A stretch of 18,253 bases of DNA from a phage. The stretch lies in the NCBI GenBank assembly GCA_024975835.1, contig GCA_024975835.1_4840.3; one strand, 5' to 3'. Positions 7,846-16,983 of this stretch are shown piece after piece. The notes under the pieces were generated by a model. It was not told the origin of the DNA and did no database searches. It was given only the letters and a program-made list of their open reading frames with translations. Every line of letters begins with the position of its first letter. Position 1 is the stretch's first letter. Made by a program: the position numbers and the translations under genes.

Positions 7846-8685
7846 ATGTCATATATTCTTCATGTGGATTCTGGAACCAAAATTGAAATTGAAGGCAAAG
7901 ACGTTGCTGCTATTCAGGCTGAAATCAAAGAAGCAGGTCTGATCATCGGAAACGTTACCCTGCGCCGTATGGTTGAAGGTGTTCTTCAGGCTGCCAACGG
8001 CTTCGAACTGATTGAAGGTCTGAGCGCCGAAGAGAAGGAAGAAACTCAGCAGGCTCTGGCGCAAGCCCAAGAGCAAGCCCAAGCTGAAGTATCCCTGAAA
8101 GTCGCTGAAACCGTTGATGCTGAAGCACCGATCTCTGCCGATGCATGTGAAGCCCCAGTGTCCGACGCCCCGGTAGACGCGGTTAAAGATGCAGTCAACG
8201 CGGCGCTGGAAGAAGGCAATCAGCCGTCCGACGCGAAAATCGGTTCCTTAGCGTCTTCTATGCTGAAAGAAGCATCGAAGGGTAAGACCCTGACCCCGCA
8301 GGCAGCGCTGGTAGAGCGTAAACGCCGTCACACCAAACGTGAGGAAATGGTTGACTTGGCTCGCGCTTCTAATCACGGTCCGGTCTTGGCGGCGATTGAA
8401 GCTGGTGTTGTCCCCGGCGTGTTCCTGAGCTACGTGAACCCAGACATGCGTTGGTTCCAGTTCCCGGTCACCGAACTGGCTAACCCTGAAAACCTTCACG
8501 CCCGCACCAATACGTATGTCGACGTTGCGCCTATCGTTTCCGGTGGCTGGGGCTTCAGTCTGTACGTGAACGGCAAGTCCTTCACCAAACGTCAGAAGAT
8601 CAAAGAGTCTGATGCTGAGTCTCTGGTTAAGGCGATCAATGAATGGCTTCCACAGGCTCTGGCTGAAGCGAAAGCTGCTGCGTAA
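7846..8685 (+). CDS. Hypothetical early protein (279 aa): N-terminal domain, acidic Ala/Glu/Gln-rich low-complexity linker, C-terminal domain
   Basis: ORF bracketed by the promoter at 7749-7777 and the terminator at 8716-8746; appears GC-richer with host-like codon choice by eye; no recognised family. Confidence 0.65.
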   Translation: MSYILHVDSGTKIEIEGKDVAAIQAEIKEAGLIIGNVTLRRMVEGVLQAANGFELIEGLSAEEKEETQQALAQAQEQAQAEVSLKVAETVDAEAPISADACEAPVSDAPVDAVKDAVNAALEEGNQPSDAKIGSLASSMLKEASKGKTLTPQAALVERKRRHTKREEMVDLARASNHGPVLAAIEAGVVPGVFLSYVNPDMRWFQFPVTELANPENLHARTNTYVDVAPIVSGGWGFSLYVNGKSFTKRQKIKESDAESLVKAINEWLPQALAEAKAAA

Positions 8686-8715
8686 TTTAAGTTCAGAAAC
8701 TGTTCAAAAGATGAA

Positions 8716-8746
8716 GGGGCTGCTATAATAGCAGCTCCTTTTGTTT
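8716..8746 (+). terminator. Rho-independent terminator: stem GGGGCTGCTA / TAGCAGCTCC (one G-U pair), loop TAA, then TTTTGTTT; a TATAAT hexamer (8724-8729) is embedded in the hairpin
   Basis: Read directly; lies between the stop of gene 7846..8685 and ATG 8760. Confidence 0.6.
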
Positions 8747-8759
8747 ATTGGAGCAGTTT

Positions 8760-9419
8760 ATGTCCTACTCCCTGAAGGGGTTGATGAAGCGCCCCGTCCA
8801 CACATTCTTTAAACCACCCGTCGTAAAGGGGATCTACCCAGCACGAGGGCAAATCTACTACGTCAAAGGCTCCAATGGTAGCGGTAAATCCACTGTGCCG
8901 TCTCAGCTGGCGGAGAGGGATCCTCAGGCGTATGTCGTGACCCATAATGGCAAGGTCATGCTGACTGTCTGTCCTTCGTTCAACGTGGTCTGTATCGGTA
9001 AATATGACAAGTCGAAGTCCAAGGGGGTTGATTCCCTGAAGGACACTGAGCAGATGTTGTTCGCGTTGTCTATTGCTGACCAACCAGAATACTTGAAATA
9101 TGATGTGATTTTCGAAGGTATCATTCCATCCACATTATTGAGTTCTTGGATCCCCCGTCTGACACGCCCACCACGTGAATTGGTTGTGCTCTTTATGGAC
9201 ACTCCTCTTGAAACGTGTATCACCCGCGTTAAATCACGTAACGGCGGTGTGGACTTCAATGAAAGTCTGGTGGTCGAAAAGTGGGAAAGAGTTCATGACC
9301 ATCGTCAACGACATAAAGACTTGTTCCCTACGGTAGCTGCGGGTATGATGAAGTCTCACGGCCTAACGGTAGACCAGGCTGTGATGGCATTCCTCTGTCG
9401 TGATTTTGGGAGTATCTGA
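8760..9419 (+). CDS. P-loop kinase-like protein (Walker A GSNGSGKST), 219 aa; candidate nucleotide or DNA kinase
   Basis: Walker A motif in the first 50 residues; start moved from the track's TTG 8748 to ATG 8760 (GGAG 7 nt upstream); stop overlaps the next start as TGATG. Confidence 0.6.
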   Translation: MSYSLKGLMKRPVHTFFKPPVVKGIYPARGQIYYVKGSNGSGKSTVPSQLAERDPQAYVVTHNGKVMLTVCPSFNVVCIGKYDKSKSKGVDSLKDTEQMLFALSIADQPEYLKYDVIFEGIIPSTLLSSWIPRLTRPPRELVVLFMDTPLETCITRVKSRNGGVDFNESLVVEKWERVHDHRQRHKDLFPTVAAGMMKSHGLTVDQAVMAFLCRDFGSI

Positions 9420-10465
9420 TGGAAATCAAAGCAATTAACAACAATGACATGCTGAAGCAGGCTGTCTTGGCTATCCGTGAATTCGGGATCGAATCTGATC
9501 CTGGTAATGCTGAAATCAATACTGATAGCACCCGCTTCCTTGATGGTGTGACTATCACTGTTTCCGATATTCGTGACCGCTGGCTCTCCGTTGAAGGTCG
9601 CAACTCATCGGCTATCGCTGCCATCGGCGAGACCTTCTGGGTGTTGTCAGGCCGCAACGACATAAAGTTCCTGTCACGCGTATTGCCTCGCGCTGCTAAC
9701 TTTTCGGATGATGGGGTAACATGGCGAGCTGCTTATGGTCCGCGTCTGTACGCCCATGGCCAGCTGGATAGCGTTATCAACCGCCTGCGCAAGAACCCAA
9801 ACACTCGTCAGGCGTACCTCACCATCTATGACCCGGCTCTAGATTCGGATGCTGGTCTGGCGAAGTTCAGCGAGAGCGGCGAAGCAAAGACTAAGGACAT
9901 GGTGTGTAACCTGGCTCTGTTGTTCGCCATCGTTGAAGGTCGTCTGAACCTGACGGTCATCAATCGCTCACAGGATGTTCTGTGGGGGATGAGTTCAATC
10001 AACTTCATTGAGTTCTCTATTCTTCAGGAAGTGATTGCTCGGGTGTTAGATGTTGATGTCGGTCAGTACAAGCTATTCTCTAACAATCTTCATTACTACA
10101 ACAATGAAGTCAGCCAGAAGCAGCTGGGCAAGATCACGAAGGACACCAAAGTAGAAGCTGGGTTCATCAACTCCATGATTCACTTCACGAACGTGACCAA
10201 CCAGAACCATATCCGCAATCTGTTCACTGGTGTGCTTCATCACTGTGATATCGGTAGCCCGTGGGAAACTGTGGTTGCTCACCTGAAGGAATACGATGCG
10301 GATCGCGGCCTGATTGTACAGATGGCGTACTGCCTGCACTGCAAATTGAATAACAAGCTCATTAACCTGGACCTGATTCAGGATCATGGCTTGAACACCG
10401 CGCTTACCCATTCTCCGGTTGACCGCAAGATCGTTGATCCTAAGTTCCTGGAAGGTGTAGTATGA
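9419..10465 (+). CDS. Thymidylate-synthase-superfamily enzyme, probable deoxypyrimidine-monophosphate hydroxymethylase (T4 gp42-like), 348 aa with a long C-terminal extension
   Basis: TS-fold motifs in the right order: GETFWVLSGRNDIKFL (TS ELLWFLKG...), GQLDSVINRLRKNPNTRQAYLTIYDP (TS DQL..VI..LK.DP.SRR.I.SAWNP), nucleophile Cys in DMVCNLALLF, and LTVINRSQDVLWG (TS YQRSaDvfLG; T4 gp42 MRSNDVVFG). Confidence 0.75.
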   Translation: MEIKAINNNDMLKQAVLAIREFGIESDPGNAEINTDSTRFLDGVTITVSDIRDRWLSVEGRNSSAIAAIGETFWVLSGRNDIKFLSRVLPRAANFSDDGVTWRAAYGPRLYAHGQLDSVINRLRKNPNTRQAYLTIYDPALDSDAGLAKFSESGEAKTKDMVCNLALLFAIVEGRLNLTVINRSQDVLWGMSSINFIEFSILQEVIARVLDVDVGQYKLFSNNLHYYNNEVSQKQLGKITKDTKVEAGFINSMIHFTNVTNQNHIRNLFTGVLHHCDIGSPWETVVAHLKEYDADRGLIVQMAYCLHCKLNNKLINLDLIQDHGLNTALTHSPVDRKIVDPKFLEGVV

Positions 10466-11031
10466 TGTACCCAAATCTTGAATTCTTTACGGGGCGCAAA
10501 CGCTCCGGTAAGGACTTCTGTTTGGAGTCCCTCATCAGCTATCACCAACTACAGGGTGATATGGACATCCAGCGCCTTTCGTTCTCAGATGAACTGCGCC
10601 GTGTGGCCAACTACATCTACCCATGGCTGCCAGCGGAGGTAGAGGATGCCGTGAAGGACGTTCCTTACGTGCACCCTGATAACCCCAAGGGCTTAACTCC
10701 ACGGCAGATCTGGCTTCATCTAGGCAGCGATACGGGCTTGCGTTACGTACAACCCGATCTGTTCCTGGCATTCTTCAAGCGCTTCCAGCTTCCTCTGGTA
10801 GAGCAGAACCCCCACGTCCATTATATCGTGAGCGATCTGCGTACCCCTCAGGAATATGAATGGGCGCTGAGTACGAAATGTCCTATCACCCGTATTTCAA
10901 AGGCCGACCGTGCTGGTATCATAGAGGACGATATAGAGGCTTTCATTGACCAAATGAAAGTGGACTACGAATTCCTCAATCCATTTGATGGTTGGGAACC
11001 GTTCGTTAAATTCTACGGAGAACGTAAATGA
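10462..11031 (+). CDS. Deoxynucleoside-monophosphate kinase, T4 gp1-like (189 aa)
   Basis: FFTGRKRSGKDFCLESL matches T4 gp1 FLSGVKRSGKDTTADFI (the G-x-x-RSGKD loop); YIVSDLRTPQEYEWA matches gp1 YIVPDTRQDHEMDAA; start overlaps the upstream stop as ATGA. Confidence 0.65.
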   Translation: MMYPNLEFFTGRKRSGKDFCLESLISYHQLQGDMDIQRLSFSDELRRVANYIYPWLPAEVEDAVKDVPYVHPDNPKGLTPRQIWLHLGSDTGLRYVQPDLFLAFFKRFQLPLVEQNPHVHYIVSDLRTPQEYEWALSTKCPITRISKADRAGIIEDDIEAFIDQMKVDYEFLNPFDGWEPFVKFYGERK

Positions 11032-11582
11032 TCACAGCAGGGCATATCAAAAGCCTGCTCGAACTCCAAAAGGCCACCAACGTGGCCTACTTTGGGGAAG
11101 AGTGGAAGAATGTATGGAGTCAGAACGCAGTCATCAACTCCATCTATCGTGAGTGGGCAGAGTTCCTTGATGAAACCACCCGTGACTGGAAGGTCTATGG
11201 CAACGACATCGGGTTTGACCATACGAACGCAGTTTATGAACTGGTGGACGTGGTACACTTCATGTTGTGCTTCATCCTTGTGGACCGCACCAAAGGTGAG
11301 ATCGAAGAAGAATTTGAAGTCCTCAGTAATCGCGAATTCACCCCATCTACTTTGGGTGTTGTAGGGCATCGCAATGTTACGTACCGCCTTGGGCAATTCA
11401 TGAACGATCCTTGCGTTGAGACTCTCATGTTCTTCCTGTCGTCTGCGTGTTCTTATATGGAGATCGACATTGAGACTTACATGCTGGCGCACAAACGCAA
11501 GAACGATCGCAATCGTCTGCGTGCTTCTGGTGGCGCGGATTACGACAAGTCCGCAGAAACCCCTCTGACCCTGGAGTTCTAA
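11028..11582 (+). CDS. All-alpha dNTP pyrophosphatase, T4 gp56 (dCTPase/dUTPase)-like, MazG/dUTPase_2 superfamily (184 aa)
   Basis: AVYELVDVVHFMLCFILVD matches T4 gp56 KFELVDIFHFVLNMFVGLG; start overlaps the upstream stop as ATGA. Confidence 0.55.
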   Translation: MITAGHIKSLLELQKATNVAYFGEEWKNVWSQNAVINSIYREWAEFLDETTRDWKVYGNDIGFDHTNAVYELVDVVHFMLCFILVDRTKGEIEEEFEVLSNREFTPSTLGVVGHRNVTYRLGQFMNDPCVETLMFFLSSACSYMEIDIETYMLAHKRKNDRNRLRASGGADYDKSAETPLTLEF

Positions 11583-12124
11583 TGTTTACAGTCGTCGTTT
11601 CATACCATGCGGAGAACGCTGCTCAGGCATCCTCCAAATTCGCCGAGCACATCATCGGCGGCGGCCATAATGTATTCCTTACTGAATACAACAGGCCTGT
11701 TAAACCGGGCGACGGTCTTTCGGCGACTGTTACGCATAAGATCGCCAGCGAGCAACCAGAGTCTCTGTTCAGAATGATCGAAGAGTATGCCAGTGGTGGT
11801 ATCAAGATACCAGATGAACTGGTAGACGTCTATTTTGAAGGCTCGATCTATTACATCCACGCTATGCCAAAGGATATAACCATTGAACAGATGATGTATA
11901 TCCTGAATATAGCACTGAACACTGCGTGCATCAACCGCACGAACTACAACAATCTGCGCAATATGTACCTAACCGACCGGCATAATGACGCATCGTCACT
12001 TGTTGAGATAATGTCCCTGAAGAGCATCCAAGAGGCGGTTAACATTTTGTCCCAGAAGGTTATGGGTGTAGACTTACTAACGACGATTAACAACAAAGAG
12101 GAAGTGAAATGGCCAGTTCATTAA
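11582..12124 (+). CDS. Hypothetical protein (180 aa) in the position that beta-glucosyltransferase occupies in T4, between the gene-42-like gene and uvsX
   Basis: ORF coupled to its neighbours (TAATG at the start, 16-nt overlap with uvsX); no motif recognised; too short for a GT-B glycosyltransferase. Confidence 0.55.
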   Translation: MFTVVVSYHAENAAQASSKFAEHIIGGGHNVFLTEYNRPVKPGDGLSATVTHKIASEQPESLFRMIEEYASGGIKIPDELVDVYFEGSIYYIHAMPKDITIEQMMYILNIALNTACINRTNYNNLRNMYLTDRHNDASSLVEIMSLKSIQEAVNILSQKVMGVDLLTTINNKEEVKWPVH

Positions 12125-15706: not shown

Positions 15707-15789
15707 ACTTCAATAACTTTACTTTCAAGAAATAATCGCCTAATATTTAATCTGTATTGAAGAGTTACAACTACATCATGAGGCTGGAA

Positions 15790-16983
15790 ATGAACGTCAA
15801 AACATTCAATATTCCGATCGACAATGAAGGGTTGGTAGTTGAGCGACTGAAGAAGCTCGAGCGCACTGCCGAAAGGTTGGGTGTTCCGTTTCCGACTGTG
15901 ACTTATGGTGAACCCTTCAAAACCCACACCCGCGACTTCACTGGTGAGATCCTTACTCACTGGTGGAAACCTGTTACTCTCGAAGGCGAAGGCATTGACC
16001 GCCCCGTCTCTTATGGTGGCTGGAAGATCATCGGTCAGTTCAATCACGAATATCCAAAGGTTATTCTTAACCGCCTGTCCGACAACATCAATCCCGACTT
16101 CATCCGTCGCTTCGAGGCAGAGAACGTCTCTTGGTGTCAGCATTGCAATCTAGTCATCCGTCGCAAGAACACGTATGTGATTGAAAATGAGGAAACGCAT
16201 ACCCAGATGCTGATTGGTAGCACCTGTATGCATCATTATGTGCCTCATCAGAAGTCCCTTGACGCGATTATGTCTTACTATCTGGAAATCCAAGAGTTCT
16301 TCATGCCAGACGAGGACGACCCAGAGGGTATATATCGCGTCCAAAATGAGCGCTTCGTCGACACCCACAGTTTCCTGCGCGCATGCTTCCAGGTGATGCT
16401 AGCAGGCGTGGATATCAAGTCTGAACTGTTTGACAAAGTACTGGGCTATGTCCGGTCTCATCAGAAACCAAAAGCAGGTTCCGATGAAGAGTATTTCGTA
16501 AACAAGGCACACGAATACCGTGAAGATGCCGAGTCGGAAATGTACCATATGAAGCTCTTCATCAGTGCGCTGTCCGAATCCAATGAGTTCAATGTCCGCC
16601 TGAAACGCATGTGTGAACCCGGCTATCACCTCATCAAGGATAACAACACAGTCCGCTGGGGTGCCAAGAAGTATTACGATTACATCCATCGTCCTCGTAC
16701 TGACCGCAAGGCGGAGAACAAATGGGTGGGCGAAGTCGGTGAAATGCTGGAAGTGCAAGTCAGATTCGACAAGCGCACCTTCCTCTTCTCCAATGAATAT
16801 GGTGATAGCTACCTGTTTACTTTCAAAACAGCAGAAGGTAATACAATTACCTGGAAGACCTCTTATATGGATACAGAGTTCTTGCAGGGTGATATGATCA
16901 TCCGTGGTCGTGTCAAAGAACTGACTGAGTACAACGGCGTTAAACAAACTCAGGTCACCAGAGCCAAATTGAGGAAGTTATGA
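15790..16983 (+). CDS. Hypothetical protein (about 397 aa) with a central Cys/His cluster (WCQHCNLV ... STCMHHY) and a beta-rich C-terminal region; function unknown
   Basis: Long ORF; start set at ATG 15790 (GAGG 6 nt upstream); in-frame ATG 15778 and the track's TTG 15757 are alternatives; no catalytic motif confidently recognised. Confidence 0.6.
   Translation: MNVKTFNIPIDNEGLVVERLKKLERTAERLGVPFPTVTYGEPFKTHTRDFTGEILTHWWKPVTLEGEGIDRPVSYGGWKIIGQFNHEYPKVILNRLSDNINPDFIRRFEAENVSWCQHCNLVIRRKNTYVIENEETHTQMLIGSTCMHHYVPHQKSLDAIMSYYLEIQEFFMPDEDDPEGIYRVQNERFVDTHSFLRACFQVMLAGVDIKSELFDKVLGYVRSHQKPKAGSDEEYFVNKAHEYREDAESEMYHMKLFISALSESNEFNVRLKRMCEPGYHLIKDNNTVRWGAKKYYDYIHRPRTDRKAENKWVGEVGEMLEVQVRFDKRTFLFSNEYGDSYLFTFKTAEGNTITWKTSYMDTEFLQGDMIIRGRVKELTEYNGVKQTQVTRAKLRKL

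Follow-up and report, generated by a model that had tools for sequence, protein, structure and literature searches.

The DNA of phage ViI (Ackermannviridae) carries 5-(2-aminoethoxy)methyl-2'-deoxyuridine (5-NeOmdU), a base formed out of 5-hydroxymethyl-2'-deoxyuridine (5-hmdU), and the study describing it drew a gene for a 5-hydroxymethyluracil DNA kinase (5-HMUDK) beside a co-occurring gene marked 'dU hmt' (Lee et al. 2018, PMC5889632); the post-replicative steps of the pathway have since been reconstituted (Lee et al. 2021, PMC8989533). Phage CBA120 showed no incorporation of 3H-thymidine, and the 'thymidylate synthase' (TS) proteins of CBA120, ViI and Ag3 clustered in a phylogeny with the deoxyuridine monophosphate (dUMP) hydroxymethylases of SPO1, phiW-14 and YuA (Kutter et al. 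2011, PMC3184105). ORF43 of Dickeya phage PP35 was named a dUMP hydroxymethyltransferase, in a gene set described as conserved in all Ackermannviridae (PMC6336734). The hypermodification account is repeated in a 2024 review and in a 2026 preprint, with modified virion DNA known for ViI and CBA120, and the preprint confirmed 5-NeOmdU by liquid chromatography-mass spectrometry in an E. coli Ackermannviridae phage (bioRxiv 10.64898/2026.05.19.726188). Here we analyze the corresponding gene at positions 9419-10465 (plus strand) of an 18,253-nucleotide stretch of phage DNA (GenBank assembly GCA_024975835.1, contig GCA_024975835.1_4840.3; hereafter the window). The literature of 2011-2021 already covers this gene, the activity it probably has and where it belongs in the Ackermannviridae 5-NeOmdU pathway, the name dUMP hydroxymethyltransferase having been in print since 2011.

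The window originates from a phage of the Aglimvirinae (Ackermannviridae). Over positions 8700-11600 its DNA shares 98.3% identity with Escherichia phage vB_EcoM-ZQ1, a member of that subfamily, and 90-92% with Shigella phage Ag3 and with the Limestone-like phages of Dickeya.

Catalytic core and substrate specificity

From motifs, fold, orthology and gene linkage we infer that the product of this gene is very probably a folate-dependent dUMP 5-hydroxymethylase of the ThyA fold, serving as the pre-replicative enzyme of Ackermannviridae thymidine hypermodification. The features of the gene are as follows:

9419..10465, plus strand: predicted dUMP 5-hydroxymethylase gene, 348 codons and a stop (PF00303, phrog_3676; orthologue of ViI orf66/Vi01_060c 'thyA')
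9419..10126, plus strand: catalytic TS-fold core, residues 1-236
9896..9898, plus strand: codon of Asp160, the carboxylate three residues before the nucleophile (Cys-3) and a hydroxymethylase signature (Asp145 in T4 gp42, Leu143 in E. coli ThyA; translation DMVC)
9905..9907, plus strand: codon of Cys163, the catalytic nucleophile (Cys146 in E. coli, Cys148 in T4)
9965..9976, plus strand: box of R183-S184-Q185-D186, with phosphate and deoxyribose contacts and the pterin-binding Asp (R183 and D186 invariant)
10001..10003, plus strand: codon of Asn195, predicted uracil-type base discriminator (Asn177 in E. coli, Asp179 in T4 gp42)
10127..10462, plus strand: C-terminal accessory domain, residues 237-348, MilA-like, five helices

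A preliminary description made from the sequence had reported a 348-residue protein with the core motifs of the TS fold, including the nucleophilic Cys of a VCN motif and an RSQD box, and all of these are present in a reading frame that starts with ATG. The string D-M-V-C is encoded at 9896-9907 and supplies Cys163, and R-S-Q-D-V-L-W-G-M-S-S-I-N-F at 9965-10006 supplies Arg183, Ser184, Asp186 and Asn195. The protein matches PF00303 over residues 67-235 with 57.9 bits against a cut-off of 24.3 and the family phrog_3676 over its full length (E 2e-183). All NCBIfam equivalog models for thymidylate synthase score it at 36-58 bits against cut-offs of 108-405. In BLASTP comparisons it is nearer to the proven dUMP hydroxymethylase SPO1 gp29 (34% identity, E 2e-33) than to E. 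coli ThyA (22%, E 2e-14) or to the deoxycytidine monophosphate (dCMP) hydroxymethylase T4 gp42 (22%, E 5e-5). One database protein of 70% identity (P0023, GenBank) is already called a deoxyuridylate hydroxymethyltransferase.

The specificity residues were read from an alignment of the query with 71 database homologues and with T4 gp42, E. coli ThyA and either SPO1 gp29 or the CampHawk twin of it, in which the T4 and E. coli reference numbering was verified against positions in the literature. The preliminary description had called the protein a TS-fold hydroxymethylase and left its base specificity open, noting an Asn in GMSSINF near the expected position of the discriminator; this residue, Asn195, aligns with Asn177 of ThyA and Asp179 of gp42, and the alignment together with a high-confidence structural model settles the matter in favor of uracil. 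Asn195 is invariant in all 72 sequences and is also found in SPO1 gp29, which indicates that it is a uracil-type discriminator. Equally invariant is Asp160. A ternary-complex study of the T4 enzyme reported that the equivalent Asp145 activates the substrate water and that the D145N mutant is dead, and it proposed an Asp or Glu at Cys-3 as the mark of hydroxymethylases, in contrast to the Leu of TS enzymes (PMC6400193). Further residues invariant in the 72 homologues are C163, R183, D186, E71, Y106, H225 and Y227, with S184 retained in 63 of the 72.

At the positions that would set the preference for ribose or deoxyribose, the protein has Arg130 and Ser184, a pair we read from the alignment as the deoxyribose type, against Lys133 and Ala176 in the cytidine monophosphate (CMP) hydroxymethylase MilA. 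Nine bacterial homologues co-vary to Lys and Ala at positions 130 and 184 while retaining Asn195, so the sugar pair is informative within the clade. Taken together, the sequence features point to dUMP as the substrate and 5-hmdUMP as the product, and in this clade the base, the chemistry and the sugar that an enzyme uses can be called simply from Asn195, Asp160 and Arg130/Ser184, respectively.

The nine Lys130/Ala184 proteins (P0051-P0054, P0059, P0063, P0066, P0072 and P0083) are themselves candidate uridine monophosphate (UMP) 5-hydroxymethylases, because they carry, besides the ribose-type pair, the uracil-type discriminator Asn195 and the Asp160 of hydroxymethylases. In Paenarthrobacter (L008, 7582-12932) the gene directly follows one for a MilB-like Nuc_deoxyrib_tr protein (PF05014) and precedes a major facilitator superfamily transporter gene and two ATP-grasp genes; this locus has the look of a gene cluster for a nucleoside natural product based on 5-hydroxymethyluracil.

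Points against the assignment and alternative activities

Several points weigh against the dUMP hydroxymethylase assignment. In the literature searched, no Ackermannviridae orthologue was found to have been assayed directly; therefore the activity rests on homology, on context and on what is known of DNA chemistry in related phages. The Ser or Thr that forms a signature two residues before the catalytic Tyr, Ser94 in T4 gp42, is Ala104 here. However, SPO1 gp29 also has Ala at this position, for which reason the signature Ser appears to be particular to the cytosine enzymes rather than a defining feature of dUMP hydroxymethylases; MilA has Thr. Ala92 and Phe95 stand at the positions of Trp80 and Trp83 of E. 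coli ThyA, an equivalence drawn from sequence alignment only. Finally, related phages hypermodify only about 16-40% of their thymidines (2024 review; bioRxiv 10.64898/2026.05.19.726188), and for 5-hmdU phages the source of the T left unmodified has been stated to be unresolved (PMC5889632). Given this partial hypermodification and the unsettled source of T, some dTMP-forming side activity is possible.

The last point leads to the alternative that survives best, namely an enzyme of dual outcome that would split the exocyclic methylene intermediate between hydration, giving 5-hmdUMP, and hydride transfer, giving dTMP, and would thereby explain genomes containing both T and hypermodified T. The partial modification in related phages and the missing account of how their unmodified T arises agree with such an enzyme, as does the replacement by Ala104 of the Ser that orders the catalytic water in T4 gp42. 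Yet the water-activating Asp160 is invariant, the architecture for hydride transfer in ThyA is absent, and nothing in the sequence favors a dTMP-making activity; moreover, phiW-14 and SP10 make T post-replicatively from 5-hmdU (PMC5889632). On balance we consider a dual outcome very improbable.

A canonical thymidylate synthase, converting dUMP to dTMP with release of dihydrofolate, is what the product name in nearly all related GenBank and RefSeq records would imply, and membership in PF00303, the compatibility of Asn195 with dUMP and the predominance of unmodified T in the genomes of related phages all accord with it. Nevertheless, the equivalog scores fall far below their cut-offs, an invariant Asp takes the place of Leu143 of E. 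coli ThyA, Ala92 that of Trp80 and Phe95 that of Trp83, the C-terminal tail that seals the folate site is exchanged for a helical domain, and the SPO1 dUMP hydroxymethylase is a nearer relative of the protein than ThyA is. Related phages speak in the same direction by their biology, with CBA120 excluding exogenous thymidine and the modified base of ViI deriving from 5-hmdU. We accordingly reject the canonical ThyA as having next to no likelihood, and the same equivalog scores, lost residues and exchanged tail exclude the variant raised in the preliminary description, a ThyA extended by a known ThyA insertion.

Least likely of all, to the point that we reject it, is a cytosine-specific hydroxymethylase acting on dCMP as T4 gp42 does or on CMP as MilA does, for although MilA is the best match of solved structure both by sequence (E 1.4e-17) and by fold, and the Asp-x-x-Cys signature is common to gp42, the discriminator is Asn195 rather than Asp throughout the clade, the pair Arg130/Ser184 is of the deoxyribose type unlike the Lys133/Ala176 of MilA, similarity to T4 gp42 reaches just the E-value given above, and CBA120 lacks hydroxymethylcytosine (PMC3184105).

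The C-terminal extension

The predicted dUMP hydroxymethylase is 102 residues longer than T4 gp42 (348 versus 246), in keeping with the excess of about 100 residues reported in the preliminary description. That description had placed the extra length after the R-S-x-D motif, which holds for about 87 of the 102 residues; about 15 lie before the box. Past the Asp of the box there are 75 residues in T4, where R-S-N-D ends at Asp171, against 162 here, where it ends at Asp186. This length is unusual only against T4 gp42, which is the wrong yardstick because the closest characterized enzyme, SPO1 gp29, has 383 residues, and it is normal for dUMP hydroxymethylases; the 120 closest database homologues all have 327-594 residues.

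An AlphaFold2 model built from the 72-sequence alignment (predicted local distance difference test 94.2, predicted template modeling score 0.93) resolves the extension, for which the preliminary description had suggested such modeling, into a five-helix domain: within residues 237-348 helices span 262-277, 282-290, 298-310, 323-331 and 335-338. When the model is compared with the PDB by Foldseek, MilA comes out on top with 343 aligned columns and template modeling (TM) scores of 0.74/0.80, while ThyA structures align over about 240-270 columns; across structure comparisons, the aligned length is about 300-343 positions for MilA and about 235 for ThyA. In a library of viral models there are full-length matches to the TS homologues of Aeromonas phage phiA8-29 (381 residues, TM 0.87) and of Maribacter phage Colly_1. 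The extra five-helix domain at the C-terminus of MilA has been described as lying away from the active site and as rendering the protein insoluble when truncated, from which a role in folding was suggested (PMC5175136). A preprint independently found the dUMP hydroxymethylase of SP10/SBSphiC to be structurally closest to MilA, applied the same K133/A176 reasoning, and reported the enzyme as a trigger of Avs type I. Such an extension is therefore already familiar from the branch formed by MilA and the dUMP hydroxymethylases.

At the level of sequence, a hidden Markov model (HMM) of the C-terminal 112 residues, derived from 36 Ackermannviridae-like sequences, matched only the ViI orthologue (E 5.5e-44), giving no significant hit among 85 remoter homologues, SPO1-like gp138, T4 gp42 and E. 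coli ThyA, and BLASTP gave no C-terminal similarity to SPO1 gp29. Because the HMM found just the ViI orthologue, homology of the extension to those of SPO1 or MilA stands on fold only. Within the Ackermannviridae-like group the domain is far less conserved than the core; it evolves fast in sequence with its fold kept.

This domain would sit away from the active site, where ThyA instead has a short tail closing off its folate pocket replaced here by the helices. Its role is most likely structural, in folding or solubility. A further idea is that it forms a docking surface joining the hydroxymethylase with the co-translated deoxynucleoside monophosphate (dNMP) kinase, the dUTPase/dTTPase-like enzyme or 5-HMUDK into a nucleotide-channeling complex, comparable to the dNTP-synthetase complex of T4, of which gp42 is a member, and/or that it offers a surface to bacterial Avs-type sensors, the latter prompted by the report that the dUMP hydroxymethylase of related Bacillus phages triggers Avs type I; we regard these functions as rather unlikely.

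A homologue in the PaMx11-like Pseudomonas phage ZC01 (L007, 3992-5038) has exactly 348 residues and is encoded beside an acetyltransferase gene and a gene labeled 'terminase small subunit', the label that the 5-HMUDK family wrongly carries in RefSeq and by which alone this neighbor is known here. Since a homologue of this length accompanies a gene with that label, the long form appears to be general to phages that modify 5-hmdU further. Many other homologues (P0046, P0050, P0073, P0079, P0095 and others) reach 470-594 residues, with C-terminal extensions of 250-360 residues lacking a Pfam match. The gene for P0050 (L011, 6820-11648) stands between an HMUDK_hel (PF18723) gene and one for a TylF-like methyltransferase, with MazG plus MazG_C and serine recombinase genes nearby, a setting that suggests thymidine-modification modules on integrative elements.

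Proposed mechanism and pathway

In the mechanism we propose, the steps follow by homology the enzymology of ThyA and T4 gp42, and the pathway flow follows the pathways of SPO1 and ViI. The enzyme would act as a homodimer in which Cys163 attacks C6 of dUMP and Glu71 helps to open 5,10-methylenetetrahydrofolate to the iminium, which would add to C5. Tyr106 would then assist the removal of the C5 proton, and tetrahydrofolate (THF) would leave to yield the exocyclic methylene intermediate. Rather than hydride being transferred from THF, water activated by Asp160 would add to the methylene, giving 5-hmdUMP and THF. Asn195 is expected to read the O4/N3 face of uracil, with Arg130' and Ser184 together with His225 and Tyr227 accommodating the 2'-deoxyribose 5'-phosphate.

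Downstream of this reaction, the adjacent dNMP kinase and the host nucleoside diphosphate kinase would convert 5-hmdUMP to 5-hmdUTP, the neighboring MazG/dUTPase-like enzyme would deplete dUTP and dTTP, and the phage polymerase would incorporate 5-hmdU into DNA. After replication the upstream 5-HMUDK would phosphorylate 5-hmdU in DNA, and a serine:DNA transferase and a pyridoxal phosphate-dependent decarboxylase, encoded elsewhere in the genome, would convert the phosphorylated 5-hmdU to 5-NeOmdU.

Gene neighborhood

The hydroxymethylase gene is part of a cassette of overlapping genes that spans 8760-12124 and is followed by uvsX and a gp41-like helicase gene. Apart from the hydroxymethylase gene, the features in and next to the cassette are:

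8713..8741, plus strand: strong terminator-like hairpin, its stem of 13 bp followed by a T-rich tail, between the open reading frame (ORF) 7846-8685 and the kinase-hydroxymethylase cassette
8760..9419, plus strand: 5-HMUDK gene (PF18748, E 1.7e-108; 88% identity to ViI gp67)
10462..11031, plus strand: dNMP kinase gene (phrog_139, E 1.2e-47; syntenic with ViI 'dnk')
11028..11582, plus strand: gene for an all-alpha dUTPase_2/MazG-like NTP pyrophosphohydrolase (PF08761, E 7.8e-9; phrog_173, E 5.4e-40; syntenic with ViI 'dUTPase')
11582..12124, plus strand: gene for an ACT_phage domain protein, the last small gene of the cassette before uvsX (PF24021, E 1.7e-79)

The hydroxymethylase gene lies directly downstream of 5-HMUDK and is translationally coupled to it, the stop of the kinase gene overlapping the hydroxymethylase start in TGATG, while its own stop overlaps the start of the dNMP kinase gene in ATGA. 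The gene order in ViI is identical (5-HMUDK, TS homologue, dnk, dUTPase, orf62, uvsX). The dNMP kinase, for which similarity to the YuA dNMP kinase has been reported (Kutter et al. 2011, PMC3184105), is presumed to be a 5-hmdUMP kinase, and by analogy to the SPO1-type pathway the MazG-like product is presumed to be a dUTPase/dTTPase that removes competing nucleotides. The ACT_phage gene overlaps both the dUTPase-like gene and uvsX, and from its position within a nucleotide cassette one may suspect that the product is a regulator that binds small molecules.

The protein to which the upstream kinase is 88% identical, ViI gp67 (YP_004327432), has been experimentally proven to phosphorylate 5-hmdU in DNA (PMC8989533). 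The ATG at 8760, which is preceded by GGAG at 8750, matches the ViI start and is probably the true start of the kinase gene, rather than the TTG at 8748 of the mechanically called ORF (8748-9419). In ZQ1, the closest genome, this kinase is annotated with only 175 residues, which would remove the N-terminal part of PF18748 including the P-loop. RefSeq and PHROG (phrog_800) label the 5-HMUDK family as 'terminase small subunit'; this label is wrong, since the kinase activity of ViI gp67 is published. That most records still carry this name for the 5-hmdU DNA kinase, and 'thymidylate synthase' for the adjacent gene, misleads both annotation and the screening of genomes for phage therapy.

Around the cassette, conserved neighbors without an assigned function are found at 7846-8685, 6611-7360 and 15757-16983 (all plus strand), and comprise phrog_3905, phrog_4253 and a 408-residue ORF lacking a Pfam match, respectively. 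The loop region of the hairpin at 8713-8741 reads TATAAT; no evident promoter of the cassette that follows could be made out. There are no tRNA genes in the window. Three ORFs antisense to the hydroxymethylase (9328-9663, 9826-10008 and 10073-10474, all minus strand) were rejected as spurious, the plus-strand gene being conserved at the protein level in more than 270 phage genomes. A second TS-fold paralogue is unlikely in the closest full genome, MW650886, where the query matches in one place only, a search by which a ThyX would be undetectable. In Enterobacter phage EspM4VN the orthologue is found in three pieces of 113, 88 and 53 residues (BFVD A0A2Z6C8G1, A0A2Z6C8D3 and A0A2Z6C8B5), 90-98% identical to parts of the protein, a fragmentation that likely reflects either a disrupted gene in this assembly or errors of frameshift type.

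Comparison with known systems

As a discovery the gene carries little weight, the extra stretch of about 100 residues being the normal MilA-like accessory domain of its branch. Its nearest described relative is ViI orf66/Vi01_060c 'thyA', also represented by CBA120 orf073 and PP35 ORF43. The two proteins are 77% identical over their full length including the C-terminal domain, share all catalytic and specificity residues and occupy an identical gene neighborhood, and are thus orthologues. They differ by lineage divergence only (Aglimvirinae here, Cvivirinae for ViI), with the C-terminal domain the most divergent part.

Among biochemically characterized enzymes, the dUMP hydroxymethylase SPO1 gp29 is the closest, its BLASTP similarity extending over the core. 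It shares the Asn discriminator within a G-x4-N loop of the same length, the Asp-x-x-Cys signature, R-Q rather than R-R, the Ala before the catalytic Tyr and a long C-terminal extension. The two extensions, however, have no detectable sequence similarity, and in SPO1 gp29 the YG-x-RL motif is followed by an insertion. Phages of the SPO1 type keep 5-hmdU in their DNA, whereas the Ackermannviridae hypermodify it. MilA of Streptomyces rimofaciens (PDB 5JNH, 5B6D) resembles the protein in its five-helix C-terminal domain but uses an Asp discriminator for cytosine and Lys133/Ala176 for ribose, in place of Asn195 and Arg130/Ser184, and functions in antibiotic biosynthesis, not in DNA modification.

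The two classical reference enzymes are more remote. T4 gp42 differs in having Asp179, a residue for cytosine recognition and N3 protonation, for Asn195 and Ser94 for Ala104 and in having no C-terminal helical domain. E. coli ThyA (264 residues) shares the fold, the nucleophilic Cys, the Glu, the Tyr, the R-S-x-D box, the discriminator Asn177 and the His and Tyr contacts to the 3'-OH, but differs in the changes of Leu143 to Asp160, Trp80 to Ala92 and Trp83 to Phe95, in the tail that is a helical domain here, and in the equivalog score, which for the phage protein lies below the cut-off.

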